Positions 27,642 through 49,197 of a stretch of 64,000 nucleotides of DNA are shown piece after piece. The notes under the pieces are model-generated. The model had not been told where the DNA came from. It saw nothing but the letters and a program-made list of their open reading frames with translations, and did no database searches. Source of the DNA: Spirochaetota bacterium (lineage in GTDB: Bacteria; Spirochaetota; UBA4802; JAFGDQ01); NCBI GenBank assembly GCA_043803405.1, contig JAZDKB010000019.1, positions 304,338 through 368,337 on the forward strand. The letters are read 5' to 3'. Position numbers and translations under genes: made by a program. Numbering within the stretch: position 1 is the first letter of the stretch; the number at the start of each line of letters is the position of its first letter.

Positions 27642-27856
27642 ATAAATCCGGCATTTTAAGTAATAAATTCAATTATTTGAACAAAACTCCCCTGCAATTG
27701 CGTTAAACGTTGAATCGTATGAATACATATGTGCCGCTAATGCCCCCTAACCCCCTGAGGGGGCATAATGAATTTCAGTCACATTGCTTTTCTGCTTCTG
27801 ATCACTGTATAATTTAAATTCAACACTATGTCTTCCAGTTAAAACCATCCAAGCCG

Positions 27857-27884
27857 GTGCCCCCTCCGGGGGATAGGGGGCCAG
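27857..27884 (-). terminator. GC hairpin (CCCCC-TCC-GGGGG) followed by a T-run on the minus strand, immediately 3' of cusB. A near-identical CCCCCTGAGGGGG hairpin is at 27741-27753.
   Basis: Read directly. Putative terminator or attenuator between cusB and the cusA promoter/repeat array. Confidence 0.4.
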
Positions 27885-29261
27885 TTAGTTCCCGCCCACA
27901 GCTGATTTTAATGCAGCTTTCAACGAAGATTCAGAGTCTATAAGAAAATTCGCTGAAGTGACAACCAACTCACCCTTCTTTAATCCGGAGACGATCTCAT
28001 AATAACCGTCGCTGGACCGGATGCCGAGTTTGACCTCGTAAGGCACGATCAAATCGCCCTTCCCTTTGATGAAAACATAATTTCGTTCGCCGGTCTGCAT
28101 AACAGCCTGTTCGGGGACAGCTGTTCTTTTACCAATGTTGTATGACAGTTTCGCATCGCCGTACATGTTCGGTTTGAGTACCAACTCAGAATTCGGGATT
28201 TCAATCCTGGCCTTAAGAACACGCGTTTCAGCATCCATAAAAGGATTGAGAAAGCTGACATAGCCTTTGAATGTTTTTCCCTGCCAGTATGACAGTGTCA
28301 CTTCCACAGGCATCCCGACCCTGACATACGGAAGGTCTGTTTCATGAAGATCTATTTCTCCCCAGACCCTGGACAGGTCAACGATTACCATAAGCGCGTC
28401 GTTCATCATAATCCTCTGGCCCTGGAGTACCATCTTCTCTGTTACATATCCGGAAGACGGAGCGTAAAGCTTTACTGCACGCTCAATCCTTCCTGTTGTA
28501 CTGAAATGCTCTATCTGTACGTCGGTTATATCCAGCAGCCTGAGTCTTTCCCGCGCCGCTTTTTCAATCTCATCCATGCTGTCCGACATATTATCACCGG
28601 AATCAGTCTTTAATTTTTGTTTTGCCTTTAATGCGGACAGATACTCCTGCTGCGCAGAAAGTAGCTCAGGACTGTATACCGATAATAACGGGCTTCCTTT
28701 CTTTACAAACTGCCCGGTCTGGTTCACATACAACTCCTCTACCCATCCGGTTACCTTCGTTGTCACTTTGAACTGCCGCGTTTCATCCGGAACTATCCTG
28801 GTCGAAGTGTGTATCTCCCTGCGTATGTTCCTGATTTTTATCTCCTCAAACGACAGCCCGATTATTTCCCGCTTTTCCTTTGTTATGATAACCGGCGCCA
28901 GGCCGGAAGGCGTTTTAATATCTTCCTCCCTGCCGCCCACCTCAAAGGGAATCATGTCCATCCCCATAGAGTCTTTTCCCGGTTTGTCACTCACCTCATT
29001 CGGGTTCATGGAGGACTTGTACATTATTTTTTTTTCTTTGGATTTCTCCTCTTTTTTGATGGGTATAAGCTTCATGCCGCAGATAGGGCACTCACCCGGT
29101 TCGTCCCTGATAATCTGTGGATGCATGGCACATGTATAAAGCTGTTTTTCTTCTATCCCGGAGTGGTCTTTATGTGAATGAAATATATATGTGTAACTTA
29201 AATATCCGCCAAAAGCTATAAGTATGATAATTATTATAATAAATAGTTTGCGTCTTTTCAT
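27885..29261 (-). CDS. cusB: CusB-like RND periplasmic adaptor with an N-terminal heavy-metal-binding domain
   Basis: YTCAMHPQIIRDEPGECPICGMKL (CxxxHP...CPxCGM HMBD), then KPGKDSMGMDMIP, then membrane-fusion-protein lipoyl/beta-barrel regions. Confidence 0.9.
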   Translation of the reverse strand: MKRRKLFIIIIIILIAFGGYLSYTYIFHSHKDHSGIEEKQLYTCAMHPQIIRDEPGECPICGMKLIPIKKEEKSKEKKIMYKSSMNPNEVSDKPGKDSMGMDMIPFEVGGREEDIKTPSGLAPVIITKEKREIIGLSFEEIKIRNIRREIHTSTRIVPDETRQFKVTTKVTGWVEELYVNQTGQFVKKGSPLLSVYSPELLSAQQEYLSALKAKQKLKTDSGDNMSDSMDEIEKAARERLRLLDITDVQIEHFSTTGRIERAVKLYAPSSGYVTEKMVLQGQRIMMNDALMVIVDLSRVWGEIDLHETDLPYVRVGMPVEVTLSYWQGKTFKGYVSFLNPFMDAETRVLKARIEIPNSELVLKPNMYGDAKLSYNIGKRTAVPEQAVMQTGERNYVFIKGKGDLIVPYEVKLGIRSSDGYYEIVSGLKKGELVVTSANFLIDSESSLKAALKSAVGGN

Positions 29262-30502
29262 GGTAAGATCTCCTGCCCCAATAAAGCGTGCAGTTCTGAA
29301 TATGACACGCTATATTCTTTCTTAGCCATCAGCAGCTCCTTGCGGTATCTGAGGAGCATCCTCACGGAATCGATAACAGGCATGAATTCAACCGAACTTG
29401 TGCGGTATCTTGATAGTGTTGTTTCAAGTCCAAGCTCAGTCTGCGGAATAAGTTTGTCTTTATATAGTTTGTATAGATCTTTCCATTTAACCAGCTGGCT
29501 GATCAGTATTTCTGTACGGGCTTTCATGTCGTTTAATTTATCCTGGTATATGTTCTTTGCCGACTCATGTTTTTTCCCCATTTCGTCCACCATGTTCATG
29601 TTTTTTTTCCATGACCAGACCGGGATATTGAACGTTATCATTCCGGTCACCATATCATCCCGCTTCATACCATCGGGACTGTTCTGCCTTTGCATGTATG
29701 AAACTCCGATATCCACATCCGGGATATATTCCGATTTTTTAAGGGATATTTCATTCCTGCTTATTTCCGTGTCTATCAGCAGCATTTTAAGCTGAGGATT
29801 CGAAACTGCGATTTCTTTATTTACTGCTTCAACCGATATATCTTTGAAATCCGGTTCCGGCAGTTTATCAATATTTATTTCAACTTTTTTCCCTGTAAGA
29901 TAATTTATTTTCTGTTCGAATTCCTTTCTTTTTTGTATCATTGAGATTATTTCCTCGTCTGCCATATCATACTCGGTTTTTGCTTTGATTACATTGGAAA
30001 GGCTTCCCATCCCGGATTTGCTCGCTGCGATTTCGCTGTCTACTACAAGTTTGATCTGCTTTTTAATATCTTCTATGAACTGAATTGACGAGCGTGTATA
30101 AATAATTTCATAAATATACATTCGCAGCATATAAAGGGTCTCTACTTTTTCAGCTTTGAGTCTTGCAGCTGCTTTTTCATATTCTTTTTCTGCTATGCTC
30201 TTTCTATAACCTAACTTGCCGAGAGGTATCATCTGGGATATTCCGATTTCCTTGGATGTCATATCCTCCTCAGTGAAAGAAAAAGAGCTGACAGGGAGAT
30301 TGTTGACTCCAAGTTTCAGTTTTGGATCTTCAAGGGCATTGCTCTGCGGGATTCGCTTTCTCATCATCTGAGTTTCGGATTCCATTGCTTTAATACGGGG
30401 ATTTTCAGCAAGAGCTGTCTTTTGAAGCTCTTCAAAAGACAGTGTCTGGCCGTAAGCCGGATAGGATAGCCCGACTAAAATTATTAAAAATATTTTTTTC
30501 AT
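29258..30502 (-). CDS. cusC: TolC/CusC-family outer-membrane efflux protein. The start is probably MKKIFLIIL at 30502; the track extends to 30556.
   Basis: Signal peptide, and a two-fold repeated coiled-coil/beta architecture typical of OMF proteins. A 4-bp overlap with cusB. Confidence 0.8.
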   Translation of the reverse strand: MKKIFLIILVGLSYPAYGQTLSFEELQKTALAENPRIKAMESETQMMRKRIPQSNALEDPKLKLGVNNLPVSSFSFTEEDMTSKEIGISQMIPLGKLGYRKSIAEKEYEKAAARLKAEKVETLYMLRMYIYEIIYTRSSIQFIEDIKKQIKLVVDSEIAASKSGMGSLSNVIKAKTEYDMADEEIISMIQKRKEFEQKINYLTGKKVEINIDKLPEPDFKDISVEAVNKEIAVSNPQLKMLLIDTEISRNEISLKKSEYIPDVDIGVSYMQRQNSPDGMKRDDMVTGMITFNIPVWSWKKNMNMVDEMGKKHESAKNIYQDKLNDMKARTEILISQLVKWKDLYKLYKDKLIPQTELGLETTLSRYRTSSVEFMPVIDSVRMLLRYRKELLMAKKEYSVSYSELHALLGQEILP

Positions 30503-31045
30503 AAAATTTTCTGCCCTGAGTACCGGTATATTTCCGGCAAAAAAAATGCCGGTCACTTACTAACAAATAATGCAGCGAATGGTAATTTTTACATGAATAA
30601 ACTGCGCTTAAATTATTTCTACTCGCGTATATTAGATTTATCCATTTTGATTGTATTGTTTGCAGATATATAAGATTTGGATTTTTATTAAAGCAGGCTT
30701 TATTTGTCAGGCTTTCCAAATTCAAAAACTGAATACAGTTACATCCAAAAAAACATAATCAGCATTTGAAAAATGAATTATAAAATCTTTTAAACTATAT
30801 CTATGAAATGTAAAAAAGTCAAATTCGAAATTATTCTTTCGAATAAAATGTTTCTGTTTTTAATAAATTAAAATTAAGTTGCTTATGAAACAATTACTTC
30901 CCGGTTTATTTTTAAAAAATGCAGGAAATATTAAGTGACTTTTTGAAACCCTCCTATTAATATTCTTATCAATCATATTTATTATTTATTCATTTATCAC
31001 AAATTAATTTCTTTATCTTTAATTTTAAAAATAAATCCCGTCAAA

Positions 31046-35897: not shown

Positions 35898-36113
35898 TAC
35901 AAATACCCCGGCATGTTAAAGATATATGTATGATAAAAACTTTTTAATAAAATCATATTTAATCTCTTAGGGTTAAATTCCCCGCAGCTATGCTGTGAGG
36001 AGGATTCAATATGCGTGTCCTGTAACCTCTATAACGCAACAAACGAATTTAGTACAGCTTTTTATTTCAACGCCTTGAAACATAATATCCCGCAGATACT
36101 GTCAGGGGTATGT

Positions 36114-36140
36114 CCAATGTCATTACCTTAATGACATTGG
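36114..36140. promoter_or_regulatory. Perfect 12-3-12 palindrome CCAATGTCATTA-cct-TAATGACATTGG in the divergent slp / Ala-Lys-repeat-gene intergenic region. Operator-like.
   Basis: Read directly. The AATGTCAT core also occurs in the arms of the 12999-13112 element and in repeat copy A. Confidence 0.5.
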
Positions 36141-36194
36141 GGGCTTGCCACTGGGAATTTTATTTGAATTAGATGAGCTTTCTAAAACCGCAAA

Positions 36195-36228
36195 AAATCC
36201 AATTGACTTTTTAAATTCCTTTTATCAA
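36195..36228 (+). promoter_or_regulatory. Second copy of the promoter-like motif AAAATCCAATTGACTTTTTAAATTCCTTTTATCAA, 47 bp upstream of the Ala/Lys-repeat gene
   Basis: 30 of 33 nt identical to 10427-10460. Confidence 0.5.
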
Positions 36229-36274
36229 TATTTCTCCCAATCAATCTTAATACTTTATTTTACAGGAGTATCAC

Positions 36275-37000
36275 ATGTTATTACGCAACCTTAGCCGCTA
36301 TTTTATTATTTCCGTGTTTGCGCTCTCATTTATATTCACCGGACAACAATTCTCTTTTTCGCAGGGAACAGCGCCCGCGAAAACGAAGGCAGTGGAAACG
36401 CCTGCCGCGGCTGCTGTAAAGACCGCTGCCGTACCCACTGACGCCGACCTTCAGGCGGATGCGGACGCAAAGGCGAAAGCCGCTGCCGAAGCTAAAGCCG
36501 ATTACGATGCGAAAGCGAAAATTACTGCGGATTCCAAAGCGGATTACGATGCAAAAGCAAAAGTAGCTGCTGCTGCGAAAGCGGATTACGAAGCAAAAGC
36601 GAAAATTTCCGGCAAGGCAAAAGCCGACTTTAACGCAAAATCAAGATCAGCAGATGATGCTAAACTGAAGATTACCGCCAGGGCAAAAGCAAAGACCGCT
36701 GCCGAAGCGAAAGAAAAAGCTGCAATCGCTGCAAAGGCAAAAGCCGAAGAGAACGCAAAGAAAAAAGCGGAGGCCGACGCAAAGAGAAAGGCTGCCGCAG
36801 AAGCCAGGAAAAAAGCTGAAGAAGAAGCGAAAGTAAAAGCAGACGCAGCGGCAAAGGCTAAAGCCGAAGCTAAAAAGAAAGCAGCCGAAGAAGCAAAAGC
36901 CAAAGCCGAGGCTGCGGCAAAGGCTAAAGCCGACGCGGATGCAAAGAAGAAAGCGGATGCAGACGCAAAGATAAAAACAGAGCCGGAGCCAAAGAAATAA
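36275..37000 (+). CDS. Secreted Ala/Lys/Asp/Glu-rich low-complexity repeat protein (TolA-central-domain-like). GC-richer than the flanking DNA.
   Basis: Signal peptide, then repeats AKAKADYDAKAK / KKKAEADAKRKAAAEA. The antisense ORFs over it are artefacts. Confidence 0.6.
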   Translation: MLLRNLSRYFIISVFALSFIFTGQQFSFSQGTAPAKTKAVETPAAAAVKTAAVPTDADLQADADAKAKAAAEAKADYDAKAKITADSKADYDAKAKVAAAAKADYEAKAKISGKAKADFNAKSRSADDAKLKITARAKAKTAAEAKEKAAIAAKAKAEENAKKKAEADAKRKAAAEARKKAEEEAKVKADAAAKAKAEAKKKAAEEAKAKAEAAAKAKADADAKKKADADAKIKTEPEPKK

Positions 37001-37043
37001 CCGGACAAAAAGCATGGGCAGTTTAAGTAATGATTAGTATAGA

Positions 37044-37122
37044 GTCATTTCGAACGAATGTGAGAAATCTCCTGATTAAGTGTAAAAATAGATTTTTCAG
37101 CCCCTATCGTTCCTTCGAAATG
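37044..37122 (+). repeat. Structured dispersed repeat, copy B. Outer stem CATTTCGAACGA / TCGTTCCTTCGAAATG; inner hairpin GAGAAATCT / AGATTTTTC.
   Basis: See copy A. It lies between the repeat-protein stop (37000) and the next gene start (37201). Confidence 0.65.
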
Positions 37123-37200
37123 CTAATTCAATCGTAAACTGTCATAGTATCACAATTCAAAAAACATAATTTTCAATTTTGAACCAAGAGATCACCTTGT

Positions 37201-39225
37201 ATGCCTAAAAGAAAAATTCAAATTGAAGTATATCCCCTGCGCTTAAATTTAAAAACCGTAATCCGTCACGCCTCCGCGACAAGACACGAGGGCGAGAGTA
37301 TCTGGGTTCATGTAACCAGAGACGGGATCGAGGGATTCGGCGAGGGCTGCCCCAGAACTTATTCTGCGGGGGATGACCTTGAATCAAGTGTTGCCTGGAT
37401 AAATAACGAATTTATCAATAAACACGAATGCCCTGAATCGCTGGATGAACTGAAAGCATGGATAAAAAATAACAGTTCTCAAATAGACATATATCCTTCC
37501 GCCTGGTGCGCGCTTGAAATGGCATTGCTTGATCTTTTCGCAAGGGAAAAAAAATGCAGCGTTGAAGAATGCCTGGGTCTCAAGGATTATAAACGTTCGG
37601 GACGCTATTCGGCAGTTATCCCTGACAGTAAAATATGGGAGTACACTGCAATAGCAGATAAATCTCTTATTCGCGGAATAACTGACTTTAAAATTAAATT
37701 AAAAGGAAAACCGGAAAAAGACCGTCAGAAGCTGGATATTTTATTTGATTTAAGCAGGCAGCACGGAATTAAAAATATTAGAATTCGCCTGGATGCGAAT
37801 AATTTATGGAAAGGAAAAAGCGAAGAAGCAATTGAGTATATTAAAAATTTAGGTACGTCAATTTTCGCGGTTGAAGAACCTGTCGGCCCCCGCGATATTG
37901 AAGACATTAAGAAAGTAAGCATTGAAACCGGCCTGCCGGTCATTTTAGATGAAAGCATCTGCACTTTAAATGATCTTTCACAATATAAAAGCCTTTCCGG
38001 CAAATATATCGCAAATATAAAAATCTCGCGTGTAGGCGGTATCCTTCGCGCCTTTGAAATGATTGATGAATTAAAAGAAATGAACTGGCCTGTCATAATA
38101 GGCAGCCATGTCGGCGAAACGTCTTTACTTACGCGGGCGGCACTGATTATTGCTTCATATACAGGGGAAAGCCTCATTGCTCATGAAGGCGCCTTTGGCG
38201 ATTATTTAGTCGAATGTGAACCTGCAGAACCAATGCTTAAATTCGGCCGTTACGGATTACTGGATTTATCCAATACTTATTTCTTAAAAAATGTTCAGGG
38301 ATTAAAATCAATACCTCCGGAAAACTGGAATACCGGATTCGGAATGGACTGCCGCGTTCCGGGAAATATTATCAACGATACTTCTGAGATAAATTACATA
38401 ATAACCCGGGATAATTACAAAATTCATTATCGTACATGGGGTAAAAAAACAGGAGATGATGTTATTTTGATTCTGCACGGCGGCATGAGCCATTCTCTCT
38501 GGCAGGCGCCCCTTGCGGATAAAATACTTTTAAAAGCGCCCGGCGTGACTGTTGCCGCGGCCGACAGAAGGGGATGCGGCTTGAACGAAGGCCGCGGAGA
38601 CCTGTATGCCGTACAGACCCTGATTGATGACCTTGTTTTGCAGATCGATCATTTAAAGAAATCATTTAAACGTATCCACCTTGCAGGCTGGTGCCAGGGC
38701 GCGCAATACGCGTCGGTTGCAGCGGAAAAAAAACATAATGAACTCTCAAGCCTTATATTGCTGACACCCGGATTTTTCTGGAACGACAGGTTCCGGTCGG
38801 TTCTGAGAATCAGTGAAAAATTTCTAATGGATATGATCGATGAATTCGGATTATCGCCCGAACGCGACCGTGCGTGTATTCCCCTGCCTATGGAAGCTGC
38901 CGACTTTACGCTCGATATGAAATGGCATGATTTTATTGAATCAGACACCCTTAAAACGAAAATGATTACTTTAAAATCAGCCAGTATCATGGACGAAATT
39001 CAGGAGCTTTCATGGTATGCAATTCAGAATAACCGGCTGCCCCTGCTCGCAATACTGGCGGAAAACGACCGTATTGTTGACAATAACAAAGTCATGCAGT
39101 TTATCGGCCACAAGTTTTCATCCGATAAACATAACAGGCAGATTTCAGTAAATACCGGCCATGCAATCCACTTTGAAAAAGCCGATGAAGTTGCCGATGC
39201 GATATTAGAATTTATCACGCAGTGA
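37201..39225 (+). CDS. Fusion protein: an N-terminal enolase-superfamily domain (MLE/OSBS subgroup) and a C-terminal alpha/beta-hydrolase fold-1 domain with Cys in the nucleophile elbow (GWCQG)
   Basis: The N-terminus has the KxK motif (FKIKLKGK), metal ligands in RLDANN / VEEP / ILDES, and K in KISRVGG. The C-terminus has ILILHGGMSHSLWQ...DRRGCGLNEG (HG...W...DxRGxG) and the nucleophile position AGWCQGA. Confidence 0.6.
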   Translation: MPKRKIQIEVYPLRLNLKTVIRHASATRHEGESIWVHVTRDGIEGFGEGCPRTYSAGDDLESSVAWINNEFINKHECPESLDELKAWIKNNSSQIDIYPSAWCALEMALLDLFAREKKCSVEECLGLKDYKRSGRYSAVIPDSKIWEYTAIADKSLIRGITDFKIKLKGKPEKDRQKLDILFDLSRQHGIKNIRIRLDANNLWKGKSEEAIEYIKNLGTSIFAVEEPVGPRDIEDIKKVSIETGLPVILDESICTLNDLSQYKSLSGKYIANIKISRVGGILRAFEMIDELKEMNWPVIIGSHVGETSLLTRAALIIASYTGESLIAHEGAFGDYLVECEPAEPMLKFGRYGLLDLSNTYFLKNVQGLKSIPPENWNTGFGMDCRVPGNIINDTSEINYIITRDNYKIHYRTWGKKTGDDVILILHGGMSHSLWQAPLADKILLKAPGVTVAAADRRGCGLNEGRGDLYAVQTLIDDLVLQIDHLKKSFKRIHLAGWCQGAQYASVAAEKKHNELSSLILLTPGFFWNDRFRSVLRISEKFLMDMIDEFGLSPERDRACIPLPMEAADFTLDMKWHDFIESDTLKTKMITLKSASIMDEIQELSWYAIQNNRLPLLAILAENDRIVDNNKVMQFIGHKFSSDKHNRQISVNTGHAIHFEKADEVADAILEFITQ

Positions 39226-39276
39226 GCCGGTGTTTTCGTTCAATACAAATGCTCCTATTCTGGATAAAATGAACTA

Positions 39277-39340
39277 CCCCGCCGCAAGTAGCGGGGTATC
39301 AAAAAGTTAGAAAAGTTTTCTGCGGCAAGCCGCGGGGAAT
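39277..39340. terminator. Convergent terminator region with two GC hairpins (CCCCGC-cgcaagta-GCGGGG; GCGG-caag-CCGC) between the fusion gene and the radical SAM gene
   Basis: Read directly. T-runs flank it on the minus strand. Confidence 0.4.
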
Positions 39341-39354
39341 TATACTAAAAGTGA

Positions 39355-40704
39355 TTAAAAGTGGTCAGGATATTCCCAGTAATAATGAGAATTCCTCCAT
39401 CCTTTTTTATAACTTTTGTTGTATTTGCAGACAGATACAAAATTGGTCAAATTTTTAAGGCTAAATAGTGATTTAACCAAACGATACTGATATGTTGGAA
39501 AAGAGTAAATGTGTTTTTTTATATAATTGCACCCAATATATATAGTGTCCAGATTTGTTCCTTTTGGTTGATGAACCACATAAGAAAATCTGTACTTGTC
39601 CCAGTCTTCTGGAAAATTTTTGTGGATGAGACGGTCTTCCGCTACCAGTTGATCCATTAACCCTGTCCCTGGAAGTGGAGTCAACATTGTAATCTGAATA
39701 ATGTCCACTCCCAAATCGACAAGAAAGTCGGCAAATTCTTTATAATAAAATGACGATTCGTAATCGTTTCCGATAATAAATGCCCCTAATACAGCTATTC
39801 CGTATTTGTGGAAAGCATCTATAACTCTTTTGTAGTTTTCTATCCCTACCTTAAGATTAATCCCTTTTCGCATGTTTTTGAGCATTTCAGCCTTCATTGT
39901 CTCAAAACCGATAAAAACGAACATGCAGCCGGATTGTGCTGCCAATTCGATTATACGTTCATTCGTACTGGCATTGATTGAAGTCTGCATCCACCATTTT
40001 TTTCTGATATTCCTGCCCAGCATTCCCTCGAGCAGTTTGATGGCTCTCTTGTAATTTTCTTCACTATAACCTATAAGATTGTCATCGACAAAAGTAAAGT
40101 ACTTGCCCTTGATCCCTTCCAACTCATTGAGGACAGAGTCAATGTTTCTCTGGCGAAATTTCTGTCCAAGATACCTCGATACTGAACAAAAATGGCAGTC
40201 AAAGGGGCAACCCCGGGAAGTTTGAACGGAATGCCAGAAATAGGCTGGATGGAGCAGGTCATGTCTCGGATTGATATTAACTTCGGATAAATTCAGTTGC
40301 GGCCCTAAGTATCTGTCTGCCAGTGTATTGTTTTCGAGATCATCTATAACCTGTCCCCAGATGCCTTCCGCTTCACCAACCAATACACTGTCAGCGTATT
40401 GAAGGATTTCATCGGGAAGCATGGAGGCATGAATGCCACCCATGATGACCTTGATATTTCTTGCACGATATAATCCTGCAATTTCATAGGCACGGGTTAT
40501 GTTGCTGGTAAAGGCAGTTATGCCAACCAGATCGGCTTCTTCGAATTCAAATTTGTCGAAGTTTTCATCAATTATTTTTATTTCCCAGTTATCAGGTGTC
40601 ACAGCCGCAACACAGGCAAGACTCAATGGCGGGAATGTGGCAGATCTGCTGAGAAGAATACCGCTTCTGCGGCCTACCGGGTTTATCAACAACAGTTTTT
40701 TCAT
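39355..40704 (-). CDS. B12-binding-domain radical SAM protein (class B)
   Basis: N-terminal cobalamin-binding Rossmann region (VGITAFTSNITRAY...VIMGGIHAS). CPFDCHFC, a CxxxCxxC radical SAM cluster motif. Confidence 0.85.
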   Translation of the reverse strand: MKKLLLINPVGRRSGILLSRSATFPPLSLACVAAVTPDNWEIKIIDENFDKFEFEEADLVGITAFTSNITRAYEIAGLYRARNIKVIMGGIHASMLPDEILQYADSVLVGEAEGIWGQVIDDLENNTLADRYLGPQLNLSEVNINPRHDLLHPAYFWHSVQTSRGCPFDCHFCSVSRYLGQKFRQRNIDSVLNELEGIKGKYFTFVDDNLIGYSEENYKRAIKLLEGMLGRNIRKKWWMQTSINASTNERIIELAAQSGCMFVFIGFETMKAEMLKNMRKGINLKVGIENYKRVIDAFHKYGIAVLGAFIIGNDYESSFYYKEFADFLVDLGVDIIQITMLTPLPGTGLMDQLVAEDRLIHKNFPEDWDKYRFSYVVHQPKGTNLDTIYIGCNYIKKHIYSFPTYQYRLVKSLFSLKNLTNFVSVCKYNKSYKKGWRNSHYYWEYPDHF

Positions 40705-43700
40705 TACAATGTAGCTTTTCCCTTTTCCCCTGCTATCTTATTAAGAATGCGGAAAATATTGTCTGCTTTGAAGGGCTTTTTTAAAAAATCATAAACACCT
40801 TTATTCTGGTATTCATTCTCATTTCCGTCAAGTTTCCCGGTCATAAAGACAACAGGTACTTCTCTGTTTACCTGTTTTAATTCTTCAAATACCTGCTCTC
40901 CGTTGATGATTGGCATCAGAATATCGAGAAACACTACATCCGGGCAGAATTCGTTGAAAATCCGTGCCGCCTTCCTGCCGTCTTTCTCGGCAATAATATT
41001 ATTAAAGCCACCCTTTTTTAATGTCAGCATCATTAAATTTATTACTTCTTCTTCATCGTCAATAATCATAATTTTAATATTTTTTGATATTTCAATATGC
41101 ATATCTGTCTTATTAAAGGTTTTTTTTACTTTTATTATTTCGTTTCCTTCAGGGAACGGCAGTTTCATTATGAATGTTGCTCCCTTACCCTCCTCACTCT
41201 CAACCGATATTGTAGCATTATGCTGTTTGATAATAGTGTGTGTAACCGATAGGCCAAGCCCTGTGCCGGTTATACCGAGATCGTCCTTTGCGTACGCGCC
41301 CTTGGTTGAAAAGAAAGGATCGAAAATTTTATTCATTGTCTCTCTGCTCATTCCAATGCCGGTGTCGGAAAATCTGATCTCAAGATGCCTGTCCGTATCC
41401 TTTACCGATATGATGATATTTCCACGGCCCTTGGGCTTTATGGCATGAATGGAATTGATCAGTAAATTTAAAAAGACCTGTCCCATCTGATCCCTGTCGA
41501 ACAATACATCCGAGTGTTCCCCGAATTCCAGCCTCACATCAATATTTTCCAGCTGTGTCTGCTTTTTCTGAAGTTTTACGGTCTCCTTTATAACATCAGT
41601 TATATCCTGTATCGCAAAGTCGGGATCTTTGGGTGTTGCGAATACAGACAATTTATTAATAATGCCGCTTCCCCGCTTTGTGGATTTTTCGATTTGCTGC
41701 AGAGATTCTTTAATATCTGCTGCAATGGACTCCTCATCCAGTATAAGCTGCGCGTGGCCAAGTATCACATGCAGAATATTATTAAATTCGTGGGCTACAC
41801 CTGACGCAAGCTGGCCAACGGCCGACAGCTTTGCTGACTGGAATAACTGCTCTTGAAGGGTTTTGCGCTCCTGTTCAAGTTCGATGTTGTACAGGGCGAA
41901 CGCGATCTCATCTGCCACTTCTTTTAACAGACGGGGCTCTTCATTATTAGATATAAAATCAGGTTTTAAGGCAACGGACATTATCCCGTATGTTTTATCA
42001 TCATACTTCAGCCTGTTTAACATCCTTAATGTTTTACAGTATTTGCTTTTAAACCCGCAATCGCCGCATTTAATGTCCGGGTTATCAATTACAACCGTAT
42101 CCGGCTCGGACAACGCCTTTTCGCAGCAGCCCGGCATAACATCATTCCTGAATTTCTCAGTAAAAACCCGGAAATCTTCCGTAAAGCCGGATTCGAATGC
42201 CCGGCTGAATTTGCCCTTTTCATCAAAAAGAACAATCCATGCTTCACCATGGCCGTTGGTTAAAGCGAGCTTGTCGCAAATATCTTTCATCAGCCTGTCG
42301 CTGTCCTTCTCGTGAGTGATAAGGTGGTCTATATTCAGTATGGCAAGAAGGACTTCATTAAGGTGCTTAATCTTTTCCTCGTGCCTTTTTAGTTCGGCAA
42401 ACGATCTCGCATTGTTTATGCTTATTCCTATCTGCTGTGCTATGCCGGAGAGGAGGTTCATGTCGCTTATATTGAGAGGCCTTCTGCTGCCTGCGTTGTC
42501 AATAGCCAGAATTCCCAGCGGCTTTTCCTTATATGCAATAGGCACTGTAATAAAGCTTTTTGTGCCGATTTGATCTACAAATTCTTTGCTGCGCGGCGAC
42601 ATGTCATTAATTATATCATTAATATCGTTGATGAGAAAAGGTTTCTGCTCTTTAAACGTCCTAACAAATATTCCTTTTGATTTTGGCCTGTTCAAATGGA
42701 ACTCAGTATTCTTTAATATCTCTTCCTTTGCCGGGTCATATCCATAACCTGCTTTGTAAACGAGCTTGCTTGCGTTATCATCTGCAAGCAGAATAATTCC
42801 ACTGTCAAAATCCGTTCTTTTTTCCAGTATCTCCATTATTGATGCAAACAAATCATCCATGTCCAGTATTGACGATATGGCCTGGCCTATCTCCTGAATA
42901 AGCAGGGCATTATTGAAGCGATTATTAATTTCTTCCAGAAGCTGTTCCGCTGTATTTCCCTGCGATTCAGAGGCGCGTATAAGTTCTTTATTTTTTTTCC
43001 GCTCATAATAATTTGATAAGCCAAGAACAGCGCCTGAACAAAGCAAAAAAGTTATAAAAGAATAAAGGACAGGTAAAAATATAAACGAGGTTATTGATAA
43101 GAGTACAGCGAAAAGAGATAAATAATTGCGTATCAGCTTCAATTGAAATGACGCAGGCTTATCCCATGATACTATATATTTGCAATATTCATCGCCTTTA
43201 TGTATACATAATGGATGTTCAATATTTGAAAATTTATTATTAAACATCGTCGGTACTGCTTCAAACAAGCCAAGCCGGGCCTCGCATTGATATGGCTTTT
43301 CCATGACATCTTTTTCCGGACGCGCACTTATTTCCACTTTATTATGGCCGAGTTTGCGCGTCTTTACCGTGCCGCCTCGTGTAAGTTTGGAGCTTATATG
43401 GCCGGCTGATGAGTAAGCTGCCTCAACTGTAATAAAACCCAACATATACTGACGAATAAGGTTATAGGAGCCTGATTTTGATGCAAATCTGCCTGTTTCC
43501 CGTGATATATTTACATTCCCTGTCTTTTTCACTAAAATTTCATGAAAAAGATCCGACTGCCTCTGGGTATACCAGTATCCCAGATCCTCTAATTCATGCA
43601 AAGAAATTTCCGCATACTCAAGCAGTGAATTAATATCAACATCGGGATAATGCTTTTTGATAAAATTAATATAGGTAATTATCATTCGGATATTATATAA

Positions 43701-43715
43701 ATGAGGGGCATTCAT
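40704..43715 (-). CDS. Multi-domain hybrid sensor histidine kinase: N-terminal sensor domain, TM segment, GAF, a Cys-rich GAF-like region, HisKA, HATPase_c, and a C-terminal receiver
   Basis: H-box SGVAHEFNNIL. G-boxes DTGIGM...GTGLGLS. Receiver IMIIDDEEE...FLDILMP...KPF. Stop/start overlap with the radical SAM gene. Confidence 0.9.
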   Translation of the reverse strand: MNAPHLYNIRMIITYINFIKKHYPDVDINSLLEYAEISLHELEDLGYWYTQRQSDLFHEILVKKTGNVNISRETGRFASKSGSYNLIRQYMLGFITVEAAYSSAGHISSKLTRGGTVKTRKLGHNKVEISARPEKDVMEKPYQCEARLGLFEAVPTMFNNKFSNIEHPLCIHKGDEYCKYIVSWDKPASFQLKLIRNYLSLFAVLLSITSFIFLPVLYSFITFLLCSGAVLGLSNYYERKKNKELIRASESQGNTAEQLLEEINNRFNNALLIQEIGQAISSILDMDDLFASIMEILEKRTDFDSGIILLADDNASKLVYKAGYGYDPAKEEILKNTEFHLNRPKSKGIFVRTFKEQKPFLINDINDIINDMSPRSKEFVDQIGTKSFITVPIAYKEKPLGILAIDNAGSRRPLNISDMNLLSGIAQQIGISINNARSFAELKRHEEKIKHLNEVLLAILNIDHLITHEKDSDRLMKDICDKLALTNGHGEAWIVLFDEKGKFSRAFESGFTEDFRVFTEKFRNDVMPGCCEKALSEPDTVVIDNPDIKCGDCGFKSKYCKTLRMLNRLKYDDKTYGIMSVALKPDFISNNEEPRLLKEVADEIAFALYNIELEQERKTLQEQLFQSAKLSAVGQLASGVAHEFNNILHVILGHAQLILDEESIAADIKESLQQIEKSTKRGSGIINKLSVFATPKDPDFAIQDITDVIKETVKLQKKQTQLENIDVRLEFGEHSDVLFDRDQMGQVFLNLLINSIHAIKPKGRGNIIISVKDTDRHLEIRFSDTGIGMSRETMNKIFDPFFSTKGAYAKDDLGITGTGLGLSVTHTIIKQHNATISVESEEGKGATFIMKLPFPEGNEIIKVKKTFNKTDMHIEISKNIKIMIIDDEEEVINLMMLTLKKGGFNNIIAEKDGRKAARIFNEFCPDVVFLDILMPIINGEQVFEELKQVNREVPVVFMTGKLDGNENEYQNKGVYDFLKKPFKADNIFRILNKIAGEKGKATL

Positions 43716-44036
43716 TTTTTATTACTTCTTACCTCTCTAGATTAAAGGCCATGAACCCATGAAATTACTTCCAAAACAGTAAGTAATAAATGAATCCTAA
43801 TTTAAATAAAAAATTCTTACTGTCTACTTTTTTGGAGCAAAGTCAAAATGACTCATAAGTGAGTGACATTATAACGCAAAGGTTAAAAAATTCAAATAAA
43901 AAAACGGGTATTGAAAATTTATGTATATAACGTAGTATAAAATATTCTTAGGAGAAACTGGATTCCTAGATATCAATTTTGTTATTAGTTAAATTTCTTC
44001 TATCTTTATCCACACAAGTGTGCGCTGTATGTATTA

Positions 44037-46130
44037 CTAATTAAGCAATGATGGCATAGTAGGATCAATCCACTGCTTGAGATAATCAATATATTCATGG
44101 CCGTACTTTGTATCAATAATCCATAGATTATAATATCTGTCTGTAACTATATAATTCAGGTTCAGATATTCAACAGGATAAACCATCACAGATATATTAT
44201 TATAATAATACATTCTCCCAAGCACATTAATTGCGTTATTCAGATTTTCCCATGGAAGATCCATATCAACAATAATGATCTTTATGCAATTCAATAATTC
44301 CGACATATTAATTCCAATGTCGGACCGGTCAATAATGAATACAGCTTTTAATTCATTATGTTCTTTTAATGAATATACATTGCATGACCTTGTTAACTGT
44401 ATCTTTTTATATATTTTTTCAAGAGGTTCTTCGTTAAAGTCCATATCAGGCCTCAGGCTTTTTACAAGAAGCCCTCCTCCTGATTGTTCCTGATAAAAGT
44501 TATCTAAAGTTTCATAATCCTCACTGTTAATTTCCTCAATTATAAATCCCTTATACAGGGACTCTGTATTTGAATGCATGGCACATGACAGATAAGCAAA
44601 TGTATCCAGTGTAACTCTTCCCGGATTATTAGCTTCCTTGTAAACTCCGCCGAAAAAATGTTCTGAAAACCTGTTATCAGGTTGATAGAAAAACATTAAA
44701 TAATCTATTTTGAATGCTGGAAGAATAAACATAATATCAAGATAATTTAAAACATGGTCTAGAATATGGATTCCTGTCTTATTTGTATTTTCTGTTGATA
44801 TGGCTGCTAGGTGCTGAACAAGCCATGATCTTTGATAAGCTCTAATTATGGAGCAATGTCCAAAAATTTTTCCGTTTTCCTGATATGTGATGTATGTGAA
44901 TATTTCCCGGCCTTTCCGGTATAGCCTGTTGTATATATCCCTGATCTCGCTGCTGCGTGATTCAATTAATTTATATTTCCTGGGATAAATAAATTTTGAT
45001 TTAAAGAAAAACTCCCATAAGGAATCAATATCCAGCTCAGGTGATAGGTTTATATGGGGATTATCGGCATTGCAGACTATCGCAAAAAGCCGGTTAAATG
45101 CATCCATCTCCATATCAAGAATGGAAAATCCATATTTGATATTCTTTTCGTCCACACTCAGCTGGTATACAACAGAAGCAGTACATTTTAAATTAATACT
45201 CCCGTTGATTACAATGTATAGCTCTTTAATGAAAAGTCCCGGCATAAGGGGGGACTCATCAATACGCAACTGCATGGCAAATCCTGCGGATGATATATCC
45301 GTCACTTCAAGTTCCATTGTTTTATTCAATAAAGGATGATTAAAAATGATTTTCGGTGCAGGCACAAGCTTAAGCCTGGGATTGCGGTTCTCTCTTTTTG
45401 TCCGATTCTTTAATGCGTTTTCCTGCGACAGGACAATAGAACAGTCATTCTGAAAAGCAGTCCTTTTATAACTGCAAAATCCTGAATAGACAATCTCCTC
45501 TCCGGTTATTTCTGCAGGCTCAGTGGATCGCAGCTCAACAAAAAACGGTTTGGCTGTATCCAATTTGTCAAGTAAAGGCTGGAATTCTTCATCCGGTTTT
45601 ATGAGGAAATCTGCGGAGCTGAATTCCTTTAAACTGCCGCATATCCTTATATTGTCCTGAATAATTTCCGCATTGACATCATCAGTGGCAGGGTATCTCC
45701 TGCTTTTTCTTCTGTTCCAGACGTAGCCTTTTACCGGCAGTGCCGCAATTAGCTTATCTTCGGTAACATCGATAGTTTCAACAGGAACTACTATAATTGA
45801 TTTGCCGTAATTAATAATAATATTCAGTAAAATATAATCGGCCGGATTATACTGTTCGTGTTTAATCCAGTGCGCCGTGAGATTCTCATCAACGCATGGC
45901 TCGGGAGATGCCATAACAGTAATGTTTTCTTTTGTTTCCGGGTTGTGAACATGTACCCGGATAGTGCTGCCGGCGAAGTGAATATGATTAATAAGATTGA
46001 TAATTGCGGCTTTTTTAATTCTTTTTGCTGAAGTTAAAGATCCGGCCGGAGCTCCGCCAAAGCTTTCCTTCAGCTCCGAAACTTCCAGCTCTTTGGCAAT
46101 AAGCCCGGTATTTGATAATGTAGCTTTCAT
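44037..46130 (-). CDS. Large (697 aa) hypothetical protein with one or two N-terminal PilZ-like (c-di-GMP-binding) motifs and an uncharacterised C-terminal domain of about 350 aa
   Basis: RRKSRRYP...(about 23 aa)...EFSSADF, and RENRNPRLKL...(28 aa)...EVTDISSAGFAMQL (RxxxR ... DxSxxG PilZ signature). Confidence 0.45.
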   Translation of the reverse strand: MKATLSNTGLIAKELEVSELKESFGGAPAGSLTSAKRIKKAAIINLINHIHFAGSTIRVHVHNPETKENITVMASPEPCVDENLTAHWIKHEQYNPADYILLNIIINYGKSIIVVPVETIDVTEDKLIAALPVKGYVWNRRKSRRYPATDDVNAEIIQDNIRICGSLKEFSSADFLIKPDEEFQPLLDKLDTAKPFFVELRSTEPAEITGEEIVYSGFCSYKRTAFQNDCSIVLSQENALKNRTKRENRNPRLKLVPAPKIIFNHPLLNKTMELEVTDISSAGFAMQLRIDESPLMPGLFIKELYIVINGSINLKCTASVVYQLSVDEKNIKYGFSILDMEMDAFNRLFAIVCNADNPHINLSPELDIDSLWEFFFKSKFIYPRKYKLIESRSSEIRDIYNRLYRKGREIFTYITYQENGKIFGHCSIIRAYQRSWLVQHLAAISTENTNKTGIHILDHVLNYLDIMFILPAFKIDYLMFFYQPDNRFSEHFFGGVYKEANNPGRVTLDTFAYLSCAMHSNTESLYKGFIIEEINSEDYETLDNFYQEQSGGGLLVKSLRPDMDFNEEPLEKIYKKIQLTRSCNVYSLKEHNELKAVFIIDRSDIGINMSELLNCIKIIIVDMDLPWENLNNAINVLGRMYYYNNISVMVYPVEYLNLNYIVTDRYYNLWIIDTKYGHEYIDYLKQWIDPTMPSLLN

Positions 46131-46298
46131 CAGAGACCTCGATTACATAGAATGGAAAAAAGGAAAGCGACATAATAATATAGTAATTGTTTATATTAAT
46201 AAAATAATGATAATAAAAATTGCAAGTATCTTTTTTAAATTTTTTCAGGTTTAAAACTTATATGGCGATTTAACTAAAAGCAGCTTGGGATCAATTTT

Positions 46299-47750
46299 TT
46301 AAAAGCTTCCGCCTGCAAGGAGGGCAAATCCGCCGCTTCCGGGACCTTTGGACAGATCCCACGCGTAATTGATCTCGATATATGAATGCTTGAATTCTAT
46401 TGAGCACCTTGCTCCGCCGCCTGTTCTGCTCTTCCATTCGAGCGTTTCATCCTGAAAGTAGCCTGTGTTCACAAAAGGCCCTGCGTAAATGAATTGCGGG
46501 ATTATCTCATATTCAATGTCCATAGCTGCCGTGTTTTTCCATTTGGAGGCAGTATAGTCATCGAAGAATCCAAGCAGCCTTTTGTCGTAAACGTATTGCC
46601 AAAAGTAACGTTCATCCATTGTTGTATAATACGAATAGAGCAGGGGAGTGACCCTGAACCGCGTAACAGGAGTGAACGCGGTCTTTAATTCTCCGGACGA
46701 AATAACATATATCTTCTCGCTCAAATCGCTTTTACCCGAAGATGCGGTTAACTTAAGGCCGCTTGCGTCCTTTCTTGAAAGCAAAGTTGATTTATTGGAG
46801 ATATTTATTTCCATGGTGATTCTTGTGTCGTAATCGCGGAATGTTTTTTCATCCGTCCTGTAATCCTTTATGTCCGATATTATTTCATTCGCGTATAGAT
46901 CAATAAATAAATATTTATATAATGCCCTGTATCCGAGAACCGGCGATAACGAACTTCTCCTGTAATCGGAGTCGCGGGATTCCCAGCGCTCAAGGAACGT
47001 GGCAATGTTCGTTCCGATATAGAAGCCGCGCGGATCATTGTCCGGAAAAAGAAAATATTTTACATCGAATTCCGCTCTCCTCAGTTTGCCTTCCCTGTAG
47101 CCAATCTTTGCGTAAAGATCGGCCGCTGTATCGATAAACGGGTAGTAATAACCGAGATACGGGGATATGCCGTAAACAGGTTCATAGCCCAGTCCCCCGT
47201 AGAAATTTCCTTTTTCTTTTTTATTGAGCTTTATGGACAGGAAGACGTCGCTTGTGTCTCCGTAATTGACAGGGTAAATCCGGACAGTATCCAGGCTGTA
47301 ATTATACTTAACTGTTTCCGCTGTTTTTTCTATCTCAAACCTGTTATAGATACTCCCAATGAACGGGTTAAATGTTTTTTCAACCTGATCCTTATTTTTG
47401 CCTTCGATGCCGCTGATGTTCAGCCCCAGTATCCTGGATTCCTTTACATGTATTTCCAGCACCCCGTCATCGCGCATCACCAGCTTTTCAACGTAGCTTG
47501 TAGTATAACCCTTTTCATGATATTCATCCGTCACTTTTACACCGATTGATTCAATATCTGTCTTTGATAACCCGCCTTTGATATTCGAAATATATTGCTT
47601 TATTTCAAGATCGATTGTGCTGCCAATGATCTCCGTGCGTTTAACCTCGATCGCAAAAAGATTCGGGCTGATCAGTAAAATAAATGTCAGGATAATTGAG
47701 AGAAAGGCGATTTTGTTAAATATTGCGGCAGGGGCGTTTGCGTTAAACAT
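46299..47750 (-). CDS. Omp85-family (BamA/TamA/TpsB-like) outer-membrane beta-barrel protein with a single POTRA-like domain. Start probably MFNANAPAAIF at 47750.
   Basis: Signal peptide, a POTRA-like N-terminal region, beta-strand-rich alternating aromatic pattern, and a C-terminal aromatic residue (F). Confidence 0.55.
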   Translation of the reverse strand: MFNANAPAAIFNKIAFLSIILTFILLISPNLFAIEVKRTEIIGSTIDLEIKQYISNIKGGLSKTDIESIGVKVTDEYHEKGYTTSYVEKLVMRDDGVLEIHVKESRILGLNISGIEGKNKDQVEKTFNPFIGSIYNRFEIEKTAETVKYNYSLDTVRIYPVNYGDTSDVFLSIKLNKKEKGNFYGGLGYEPVYGISPYLGYYYPFIDTAADLYAKIGYREGKLRRAEFDVKYFLFPDNDPRGFYIGTNIATFLERWESRDSDYRRSSLSPVLGYRALYKYLFIDLYANEIISDIKDYRTDEKTFRDYDTRITMEINISNKSTLLSRKDASGLKLTASSGKSDLSEKIYVISSGELKTAFTPVTRFRVTPLLYSYYTTMDERYFWQYVYDKRLLGFFDDYTASKWKNTAAMDIEYEIIPQFIYAGPFVNTGYFQDETLEWKSRTGGGARCSIEFKHSYIEINYAWDLSKGPGSGGFALLAGGSF

Positions 47751-47757
47751 ATTGTCC

Positions 47758-48591
47758 TCATTGTTGCAGGTATTTTTTCTTAGCATCAGCAGGGAACGCG
47801 GCTTTAAATAATTTCTCATCAACGGAATAGTTAAGGCGTATGCCGGAATATATCGTAATATTTCTCGTAATTCCTTTATCTGTTCTGGCGTAAATATCTA
47901 TTCTCGAAGGGAAGTTTATATTTTTTATTTTTTTATAATCTTCATATATTTCTTTCATGATTTCAACACCGGCGCTGTCAGTAATGATCTTTGAAAGTAG
48001 AGCTTTGTTCTTCGCGTCAATCATGATATTAAAGCTAAGTTTGTTTTTAACATCATCGACAATATATTGATGCGCTGAATTGAAAAAGCCGTAAAAATGC
48101 TTTCCCATGTAATTTATTTTAAATTGGTTGCCGGATTCATTTTGCTTAAATTCCTGAAGCGGATTGATTTTCGGTTTGTTCGGGACCGCATTGTTCCCGA
48201 TAATATACAGGACATTATCATCATGGAAATACCAGTAAAGTGAAGCGCCGTTGTTTAAAACTATTTGCTTTGAAGGCGCAGTGTAATCTATCCTGAAACG
48301 CCCCCTGTCGTCTGCTATGTATCTTCCTTTGAAAACTTCCCTGCCGTGTTCCGGCGTGTTTACATGCTGAACTATTTCAGCGTCTATTGATCTGATTCCT
48401 GTATTCGCTTCAATAATTTCGCTAAAGGGCAGGGGAGATGTTTCTTCCGCGGATGAAGCGGCATTAAATATTATTATAAAAAATACGGTTAAAATAATAT
48501 TTATTAAGGATTGATTCCGGGGTTTATGATGGGTAGTTGTCCCCGGATATGTGCCGCTCATGTGTAGTTTAAGATTACCCGGATTCTTCAT
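47758..48591 (-). CDS. LolA-like / DUF4292-like periplasmic or OM-lipoprotein-sorting-fold protein
   Basis: Signal/anchor. FKGRYIADDRGRFRIDYTAPSKQIVLNNGASLYWYF resembles the LolA beta-barrel N-terminal half. Confidence 0.4.
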   Translation of the reverse strand: MKNPGNLKLHMSGTYPGTTTHHKPRNQSLINIILTVFFIIIFNAASSAEETSPLPFSEIIEANTGIRSIDAEIVQHVNTPEHGREVFKGRYIADDRGRFRIDYTAPSKQIVLNNGASLYWYFHDDNVLYIIGNNAVPNKPKINPLQEFKQNESGNQFKINYMGKHFYGFFNSAHQYIVDDVKNKLSFNIMIDAKNKALLSKIITDSAGVEIMKEIYEDYKKIKNINFPSRIDIYARTDKGITRNITIYSGIRLNYSVDEKLFKAAFPADAKKKYLQQ

Positions 48592-48597
48592 TACAAA

Positions 48598-49197
48598 TTA
48601 AAGCTGTGTCATTAAATACATAATGCGGCTGGCCCTTTCCCTGGGCATAAGCGAAATAAGATATGAAGAGATGCTCGTTTTGCCTGCATTTGCCGCGTCC
48701 GCGTCGATCTGGCGCAGAACGTCGATCACCAGCGTGTCTTCCCAGTTCACAATGATCTGTATGGCTTCTTCCGGCCTCATGCTGTAGATCTTCTGGGCAA
48801 GATCCGTGACATTTTTTTTGTAGCCGGAATACATATGTTTTTCTTTTTCAATCTTTTCTTTCTCTAATCCAAGCCCTTTTCTTATTTCCTGAAGTTTCTC
48901 TTTTTCCTTTTCCAGTTCCTTTTCGGTCTGTTCAATGCCTGCCTCGCGCTTGTCCAGCTCCTCGATCCTTTCTTTAAGCTTTTCGTTCTGCTTTTCGAAC
49001 TCCTCGCGCTCAATCAGCGAAGGCTCATCATCGGCAGCGTCCACAACGGATGCGACATCGCTTTTTGTGTATGATCTGACTACTTTGTTTATATTCAGAA
49101 TACCGATGTAATCAAGCCAGAAAACACCTACAACCACGATAAATATTATCAGGATGATTAAGAAAAATACCTTTGCTCTTTCACTCGATAGTTTCAT
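48598..49197 (-). CDS. YlxF/MotE-like flagellar protein (N-terminal TM, coiled coil, C-terminal MgtE_N-like domain)
   Basis: It sits immediately after fliJ, as ylxF does in the Bacillus fla/che operon. EKEKEKLQE coiled coil. C-terminus RPEEAIQIIVNWEDTLVIDVL. Confidence 0.5.
   Translation of the reverse strand: MKLSSERAKVFFLIILIIFIVVVGVFWLDYIGILNINKVVRSYTKSDVASVVDAADDEPSLIEREEFEKQNEKLKERIEELDKREAGIEQTEKELEKEKEKLQEIRKGLGLEKEKIEKEKHMYSGYKKNVTDLAQKIYSMRPEEAIQIIVNWEDTLVIDVLRQIDADAANAGKTSISSYLISLMPRERASRIMYLMTQL

Follow-up and report, generated by a model that had tools for sequence, protein, structure and literature searches.

A PilZ/double-GNAT fusion protein encoded beside a conserved sensor gene in a Spirochaetota bacterium: a candidate c-di-GMP-gated acyltransferase

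Introduction

Few effectors of the second messenger cyclic diguanylate (c-di-GMP) are enzymes. Mycobacterium Pat is a protein acetyltransferase of the GNAT (Gcn5-related N-acetyltransferase) superfamily that is regulated by cyclic AMP and carries a domain binding cyclic nucleotide monophosphates (cNMPs). HfsK of Caulobacter crescentus, a c-di-GMP-binding member of the N-acetyltransferase family, is presented as a 'novel c-di-GMP effector protein' in the title of its report (PMC5362036). As far as these descriptions go, both are cases of a cyclic-nucleotide second messenger directly controlling a GNAT-superfamily acyltransferase, which is the likeness of interest here. The closest characterised analogue of the protein described below is PixB (MXAN_2604) of Myxococcus xanthus, a PilZ-PilZ-GNAT protein that binds c-di-GMP in vitro, whose PilZ arginines are required during development, and whose acetyltransferase domain, with a substrate that is not known, is indispensable for function and by itself enough to control motility (PMC8316039). 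In the searchable literature, PixB was the sole PilZ-GNAT fusion that we found described. The present analysis concerns a second such fusion, encoded in a 64,000-nucleotide stretch of the genome of a Spirochaetota bacterium (hereafter the window; assembly GCA_043803405.1, contig JAZDKB010000019.1, positions 304,338 to 368,337), where an open reading frame (ORF) of 697 amino acids plus stop, read from ATG to stop, occupies positions 44037..46130 of the minus strand. A first-pass annotation of the window had recorded this ORF as a large PilZ-motif protein without giving its strand, and the ORF was confirmed; its product is identical (100%) to the NCBI entry 'MAG: hypothetical protein V1874_10145 [Spirochaetota bacterium]', where MAG stands for metagenome-assembled genome. 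The protein joins a PilZ-bearing array of three beta-barrels to two GNAT folds in tandem, and we give about even credence to a soluble, cytoplasmic protein that would couple c-di-GMP sensing to acyl transfer.

The window protein resembles PixB in having two PilZ domains N-terminal to a GNAT region within one cytoplasmic protein, and the same gating logic is proposed for it here. The PixB GNAT region was recognised by the domain-scan tools of its authors and is read here as a single domain, whereas the window family has a double GNAT without any match to a profile hidden Markov model (HMM). The arginines of the two PilZ arginine motifs are 210 residues apart in PixB (R121 and R331) and 108 residues apart in the window protein (R141 and R249). 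PixB was reported as conserved only in fruiting Cystobacterineae (PMC8316039), whereas members of the window family come from Desulfobacterota, Bacteriovoracaceae and Leptospirales MAGs, and the family further differs in an extra N-terminal barrel and in a conserved partner with H-NOX/V4R-like and GAF domains. Compared by description, the motif spacing, GNAT recognisability and taxonomy are indirect indications that the window family is separate from PixB. On the proposed reading, the window protein would be a further PilZ-controlled GNAT enzyme of the type already known from PixB, with the double GNAT, the large family and the sensor partner as its new features.

Domain Organization of the PilZ/Double-GNAT Protein

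The full-length AlphaFold2 model (predicted local distance difference test, pLDDT, 85.6; predicted TM-score, pTM, 0.80) divides the protein into the segments described here, all of which are encoded on the minus strand. Residues 1–35 (46026..46130) form a poorly conserved tail (majority fraction 0.29) that is predicted to be disordered, with pLDDT below 50 for residues 1–30. This is followed by an N-terminal beta-barrel resembling the YcgR N-domain (residues 36–138; 45717..46025), by the PilZ-A barrel (residues 139–240; 45411..45716) and by the PilZ-B barrel (residues 243–357; 45060..45404), whose C-terminal helix 342–356 runs directly into the GNAT domain. The modelled PilZ barrels have the six-stranded PilZ fold and can be superposed on solved PilZ domains; in Foldseek searches of the PDB, the N-terminal half matched MrkH, YcgR, PlzA, MotI and VCA0042 at E values of 3e-7 to 4e-6. 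The two arginine-rich motifs are placed by the model on the two linkers between the three barrels. The inter-barrel linker is the c-di-GMP clamp site in YcgR, MrkH and PlzA.

Conservation of the PilZ motifs was assessed in an alignment of 53 sequences with 28–69% identity to the query. The arginine motif of PilZ-A, R141-K-S-R-R145 (45696–45710), is a canonical RxxxR in which R141 and R145 are invariant (53/53), and that of PilZ-B, R246-E-N-R249-N-P-R252 (45375–45395), has the non-canonical spacing RxxRxxR, with R249 invariant (53/53) and R252 present in 52 of the 53 homologues. The second motif of PilZ-B, D278-I-S-S-A-G283 (45282–45299), is a conserved, canonical (D/N)xSxxG with an invariant G283, whereas its counterpart in PilZ-A, EFSSAD (E169 to D174; 45609–45626), is degenerate in the window protein; the family consensus at this place is D-F-S/N-P-x-G, with D169 in 33/53 sequences (E in 15) and G174 in 40/53. 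Thus both signatures listed by the first-pass annotation are present, and its RxxxR assignment stands for the first signature and fails for the second. At 28–69% identity, the invariance of R141, R145, R249 and G283 and the retention of R252 in 52/53 sequences make both signatures more than chance occurrences. A subclade resembling Leptospirales proteins (the window protein and P0002–P0006) was observed to have lost the glycine of the second PilZ-A motif, with D or S in its place, and to have replaced the R/K residues of the putative coenzyme A (CoA) loop described below (ENTNK-x-G); these sequence changes suggest altered ligand handling.

PilZ (PF07238) was the sole Pfam match of the query (residues 265–351, E 4.8e-4), and no match to the PilZN (YcgR_N) HMM was found in it. 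Searches of NCBIfam, PADLOC and PDB sequences with the whole protein and with family profiles likewise added no domain to PilZ. When the 53 family members were scanned singly, a PilZ match was obtained for 44 (E <= 1, best E 7.8e-11) and no other family was recurrent; a precomputed PF07238 annotation was also present on 37 of the 57 hits of the first homologue search. The profile check proposed in the first-pass annotation therefore finds PilZ in the family, with the query itself just under the curated cut-off, and the predicted c-di-GMP binding is upheld at the level of a plausible PilZ-type receptor. The protein differs from YcgR, MotI, PlzA and MrkH, which have about 210–250 amino acids, two barrels and no enzymatic domain and bind motor proteins or DNA, in its three barrels, two arginine motifs, enzyme-like output of 340 amino acids and lack of a conserved flagellar context. 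At 697 amino acids its size is, as had been noted before, far above the approximately 250 amino acids of YcgR.

The C-terminal 340 amino acids fold as two GNAT domains in tandem in confident models of both the full-length protein and the domain alone, and the latter model (pLDDT 86.1, pTM 0.87) answers the structure prediction that had been suggested for this part in the first-pass annotation. By sequence, residues ~358–697 had no match in Pfam, NCBIfam or the PDB, and a profile of the domain found nothing among PDB sequences at E <= 10. The N-terminal GNAT lobe (residues 358–522; 44565..45059) is the probable acyl-CoA-binding and catalytic lobe according to its topology, conservation and fold matches. 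Its elements, a1 368–377, a2 383–406, b2–b4 411–443, a3 452–467, b5 477–482, a4 487–500 and b6 506–517, are modelled in the canonical GNAT order (b1-a1-a2-b2-b3-b4-a3-b5-a4-b6). No part of the protein is better conserved: 39 alignment columns stand at or above 90%, and L371, W372, F376, F380, Y382, K385, Y386, H425, W436, H440 and G453 are invariant. The loop between b4 and a3 (44766–44789) contains the invariant G453 within an R/K-x-x-G sequence and reads R-x-G-x-x in the family, as compared with Q/R-x-x-G-x-G/A, with R/K two to three residues earlier in the members inspected; after b5, a segment N-x(6)-F-G-G resembles GNAT motif B. The C-terminal GNAT lobe (residues 523–697; 44040..44564) has no recognisable pyrophosphate-binding motif; its invariant residues are R581, N608, S610 and Y667, and a conserved loop S603-D-x-G-x-N608-x-S610-E-L-L-N lies at 44286–44324.

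Foldseek searches of the PDB returned tandem-GNAT structures at E values from 5e-8 to 1e-5, including the glucosamine (GlcN) N-acetyltransferase of Clostridium acetobutylicum (E 5e-8), VipF, the clavulanate-pathway ORF14 protein (2wpw), N-myristoyltransferase (NMT) and Eis-like proteins. The two best structural matches of the domain are HisAT/NAT16 (9emd) and Ta0821 (3c26), which are grouped as the 'HisAT type' of double GNAT in the HisAT paper; in this type, acetyl-CoA is bound by the N-lobe, residues for CoA binding no longer occur in the second lobe, and the amino acid lies between the lobes (PMC12219266). At the level of fold, the window protein displays the same asymmetry, with a CoA-type loop in the N-lobe only, and by analogy with HisAT-type double GNATs (PMC12219266) the C-lobe probably forms the acceptor-binding side. 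Identity of 9emd and 3c26 to the window domain is 8–14%, with no detectable sequence relationship, and HisAT and Ta0821 are without regulatory domains, unlike the window protein. A comparison of the five sub-domains with hhalign, barrel against barrel and lobe against lobe, detected no internal repeat (all probabilities below 4%), and the barrel and GNAT-lobe repeats are visible at the level of structure only. Judged from the models, the C-terminal domain is a very divergent member of the well-known GNAT superfamily, recognisable by fold only. The earlier description of an unassigned C-terminal domain of about 350 amino acids thus holds with respect to sequence models and not with respect to a new fold, and the idea of a novel output domain, which the first-pass annotation would itself have given up for a match to a well-known enzyme family, is weakened by a match that exists at fold level only.

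Distribution of the Family

The first homologue search yielded 57 relatives, nearly all with 680–720 amino acids and aligned from end to end. A profile of the C-terminal 340 amino acids, searched against 1.84 billion representative proteins, retrieved 1302 clusters (50% identity) at E <= 1e-3, of which 417 score E <= 1e-30, and in almost all clusters the double-GNAT domain occupies approximately residues 350–700 of proteins of about 700 amino acids. Relatives are encoded in 261 genomes, counted as one genome per species, and the best 80 of these 261 are all MAGs, assigned to Syntrophales, Desulfobacterales, Desulfatiglandales, Bacteriovoracaceae and two uncultured Leptospirales. In the sources, the members are named only 'hypothetical protein' or 'PilZ domain-containing protein'; our literature search found no description of the PilZ/double-GNAT family, and transferase fusions are not mentioned in a large preprint on PilZ similarity networks. 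Proteins of 322–420 amino acids that appeared to be stand-alone C-terminal domains on long contigs proved to be pieces of frameshifted genes in fragmented assemblies and do not represent a separate architecture. A few members, among them P0117 (1209 amino acids) and P0164 (1220 amino acids), were observed to carry N-terminal NERD and Ser/Thr protein kinase domains ahead of the PilZ/double-GNAT part. One further member (L040, QMWS01000145.1) comes from a MAG that bears the label 'Thermoprotei archaeon', where its contig is 3 kb long; the other loci are all bacterial, and it is probably a binning contaminant.

Conserved Partner and Accessory Genes

The conserved partner of the PilZ/GNAT gene is the sensor gene downstream of it, not the flagellar genes upstream. 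In the window, this partner (40704..43715, minus) encodes 1003 amino acids, comprising an H-NOX/V4R-like N-terminal domain (residues 1–190; 43146-43715), a hydrophobic hairpin of approximately two transmembrane helices (residues 197–245; 42981-43127), a GAF domain (residues 284–433; 42417-42866) and the HisKA (41637-41819), HATPase (41151-41498) and REC (40746-41072) domains of a hybrid histidine kinase, all on the minus strand, with an extra region that is specific to the window and the lineage of locus L006. Downstream sequence of 1.5 kb or more was available for 68 non-redundant loci; in at least 54 of these the gene is followed on its own strand by a homologous sensor gene, in 47 of them within 700 bp, and four more loci (L016, L017, L027 and L064) also have the sensor and were excluded by the overlap filter only. 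The partners share the N-terminal domain of about 190 amino acids, the hairpin with two transmembrane helices and the GAF domain, and they vary in output: of 45 partners, 29 have HisKA/HATPase (28 of them also REC), nine a class III nucleotide cyclase (Guanylate_cyc) and six an HD_5 domain of HD-GYP type. Since a constant sensor module with interchangeable outputs almost always stands beside the PilZ/GNAT gene, the enzyme would act on the input side of the sensor. No description was found for this partner family (window 40704-43715; loci L001, L003 and L006–L008, and about 50 further loci).

The N-terminal domain of the partner gave weak Pfam matches to V4R and Arabinose_bd, and its profile matched the C-terminal segment of an H-NOX protein (Shewanella woodyi H-NOX, 4u9b) at E 1e-3, all of these matches being below curated cut-offs. 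C144, H167 and C170 are invariant in the partner family and C178 is nearly so; the cysteine spacing (C144-26-C170-8-C178) is the 26/8 spacing of the zinc cysteines C155/C181/C189 of the phenol sensor MopR (PMC9556785), and H167 stands three residues ahead of C170. Unlike H-NOX, the family has no invariant histidine at the haem-ligating position, near which it has Y101, and the domain is therefore probably no haem sensor. It differs from both H-NOX and the MopR/DmpR V4R sensors in its fusion to a transmembrane hairpin and a GAF domain. From its sequence, it looks like a non-haem small-molecule pocket domain of the H-NOX/V4R type.

Three kinds of enzyme gene recur beside the pair formed by the PilZ/GNAT and sensor genes. 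A B12-binding radical S-adenosylmethionine (SAM) enzyme is encoded in the window at 39355..40704 (minus), its start overlapping the stop codon of the kinase gene, and homologues occur at 19 loci, at 14 of which they stand within 600 bp of the pair; no NCBIfam family was reached at cut-off, and the best partial matches are methylases of the HpnR, Mmp10 and PhpK types. A fusion of an enolase-superfamily (MR_MLE) enzyme and an alpha/beta hydrolase lies at 37201..39225 (plus), convergent with the cluster and 1485 bp from the pair. MR_MLE homologues were detected at 14 loci, 13 of them within 600 bp of the pair and unfused; the MR_MLE part, for which no NCBIfam cut-off was reached, is most like MenC of the o-succinylbenzoate synthase/N-succinylamino acid racemase (OSBS/NSAR) type and N-acetyl-D-glutamate racemase. 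It is uncertain whether 37201-39225 belongs to the cluster as an accessory gene; its product may act as an N-acyl-amino-acid racemase/deacylase in connection with the GNAT protein, or may be a fusion of the MenC-MenH kind that has nothing to do with it. A class I SAM methyltransferase, about 270 amino acids long, has homologues at 36 loci, 30 of them within 600 bp of the pair and in variable orientation (for example L001 6949-7761, L004 10272-11108 and L007 12951-13769), and none in the 64-kb window; its homologues match no NCBIfam model at cut-off. Taken with the HisAT-type fold, the accessory enzymes are a hint of N-acyl-amino-acid chemistry and no more.

Elsewhere in the window, a CusCBA-like resistance-nodulation-division (RND) efflux operon (21958-30556, minus) was observed, comprising OEP, an HlyD-type adaptor with a heavy-metal-binding domain and ACR_tran; it adjoins a chemoreceptor with a CZB zinc-binding domain. 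A scan of positions 36000–48000 with Rfam detected no riboswitch or other RNA at E <= 0.1. A reading of the region as a defence system was dropped, as the PADLOC matches were only to generic HATPase and radical SAM domains.

Proposed Mechanism and Alternative Explanations

We propose that the window protein is a c-di-GMP-gated acyl-CoA N-acyltransferase with a double-GNAT output that works with the adjacent sensor, and from sequence and models we consider this proposal about as probable as its negation. The triple-barrel PilZ module, the double GNAT and the operon partner come from sequence analysis and modelling, and from these we infer c-di-GMP control, the use of acyl-CoA, the acceptor and the feed to the sensor. 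In this proposal, c-di-GMP would bind at one or both of the inter-barrel linkers, and the bound nucleotide would rigidify or reorient the barrel array and so turn acyltransferase activity on or off. Acyl-CoA would be bound by the N-terminal GNAT lobe, and the cleft between the lobes would hold the acceptor, for which amino acids, other small amines and protein amino groups are the likeliest candidates. The enzyme would work with the membrane-anchored sensor encoded by the next gene, with its H-NOX/V4R-like pocket, transmembrane hairpin and GAF domain, whose output differs with the lineage: the window has a hybrid histidine kinase, and other lineages have a class III nucleotide cyclase or an HD-GYP-type domain in its place. 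The sensor would either recognise the acylated product as its ligand or itself be the acyl acceptor.

Several findings weigh against this proposal. The PilZ score of the query, 20.8 bits, is just under the Pfam gathering score of 22.5; the window protein and its closest relatives have a degenerate second motif in PilZ-A (D to E, G to D), and the PilZ-B arginines are spaced RxxRxxR instead of RxxxR. For the GNAT part, no Pfam or NCBIfam model was matched in the query, and Acetyltransf_4 was matched in only one of 53 members (E 0.097). The CoA loop is without the final G/A throughout the family and, in the query (N450-K-T-G453-I-H), also without the first R/Q, and the near-invariant R483 is Q in the query. 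The model is silent on contacts between the barrels and the GNAT domain, the substrate cannot be read from the fold, and the functional link to the partner comes from gene order only. Both c-di-GMP binding and acyl transfer by family members are thus predicted properties. Degenerate motifs do not exclude function, because the invariant residues argue for selection.

Among the alternatives, a c-di-GMP-regulated protein acetyltransferase, acting on lysines or N-termini of the adjacent sensor or of other signalling proteins and not on a small molecule, is the one that survives best, and we hold it to be possible though improbable. Such an enzyme would be comparable to the cAMP-regulated Pat enzymes or to what has been proposed for PixB. 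It has a precedent in PixB, in which the acetyltransferase domain is needed for function (PMC8316039), it would suit the tight pairing of the gene with one particular sensor module, and GNAT folds give no information on the substrate. The two best structural matches, of the HisAT/Ta0821 type, act on free amino acids, and the flanking SAM methyltransferase, B12-radical SAM and racemase-like enolase-superfamily genes fit metabolite chemistry better; neither point is decisive. The second alternative, that the double GNAT is a pseudo-enzyme and the protein a c-di-GMP-dependent adaptor, which would bind the sensor and tune its output by protein contact or would use the CoA pocket as a ligand site, appears unlikely to us, slightly more so than the first. 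It would account for the missing GNAT HMM match and for the gaps in the pyrophosphate-loop motif, which are greatest in the window protein, and double GNATs typically have one inactive lobe (PMC12219266); against it, conservation in the protein is highest in the N-lobe, the elements that form GNAT active sites carry invariant His, Trp, Tyr, Lys and Gly residues, and the canonical topology is intact.

The weakest alternative is that suggested by gene position in the first-pass annotation, namely an effector of motility or envelope functions. The PilZ/GNAT gene does lie, as stated there, directly downstream of a flagellar and outer-membrane gene run on the same strand, which includes flgB/C-like rod proteins, fliF, fliG, fliH, fliI, fliJ and an SLT transglycosylase. 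Three ORFs at 46299-49197 (minus) separate the PilZ gene from the flagellar export genes: the collar protein FlbB (NCBIfam equivalog, 181 bits), a LolA/LolB-like DUF4292 protein, and an ORF of 507 amino acids with a weak POTRA_2 match only, which overlaps the DUF4292 ORF by 65 nt. Between this run and the PilZ/GNAT gene lies an AT-rich intergenic region of 168 bp (46131..46298, minus), which contains sigma-70-like sites, identified as consensus matches only, and a GAGG ribosome-binding site at 46137–46140, 6 nt ahead of the ATG; from these sequence elements, the gene is probably transcribed from a promoter of its own. Neither flank of the gene has a predicted intrinsic terminator on the strand of the gene. 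At none of 87 homologue loci was a homologue of the nine upstream flagellar and outer-membrane genes found within 5–8 kb, and these genes are not nearby in the two closest relatives, both Leptospirales MAGs. The link to motility or the envelope is thus confined to the window (0/87 loci with the upstream genes), and the architecture of a YcgR-type flagellar brake, PilZN plus PilZ in about 250 amino acids, is absent, as is the flagellar association; the 697-amino-acid protein is not such a brake. Consequently, a YcgR-like action of c-di-GMP on the flagellar motor or on upstream-encoded envelope functions is very improbable, since its supports, namely the same-strand position directly after the fliF-fliJ, flbB and LolA/B-like run, the YcgR/MotI/PlzA-like fold of the N-terminal half and the influence of PixB on motility in Myxococcus (PMC8316039), are opposed by the 87 loci, the promoter-like sites in the 168-bp gap, the missing PilZN (YcgR_N) match and a conserved neighbor that is a sensor kinase.

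Returning to the proposed gated acyltransferase, one specific form of it would be a relay from second messenger to metabolite to receptor, in which c-di-GMP turns on the double GNAT and the acylated small molecule is the cognate ligand of the adjacent sensor; we put this form forward tentatively, as an unlikely one. The product would be a small acylated molecule, such as an N-acyl amino acid, which may be tailored further, depending on the lineage, by the SAM methyltransferase, the B12-radical SAM enzyme or the enolase-superfamily enzyme resembling N-acyl-amino-acid racemases. The sensor would then drive a phosphorelay, cNMP synthesis or c-di-GMP hydrolysis, and the HD-GYP-type output would make a feedback loop.

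Conclusions

The C-terminal 340 amino acids of the PilZ/double-GNAT protein and the N-terminal 190 amino acids of its partner each deserve a family model of their own. The hosts of the family are anaerobic Desulfobacterota, predatory Bacteriovoracaceae and uncultured Leptospirales. For these bacteria, the near-constant sensor partner with its swapped outputs provides a testable handle on the target of a c-di-GMP-controlled acyltransferase, and through the pairing c-di-GMP may be cross-wired with the two-component, cNMP and HD-GYP pathways.

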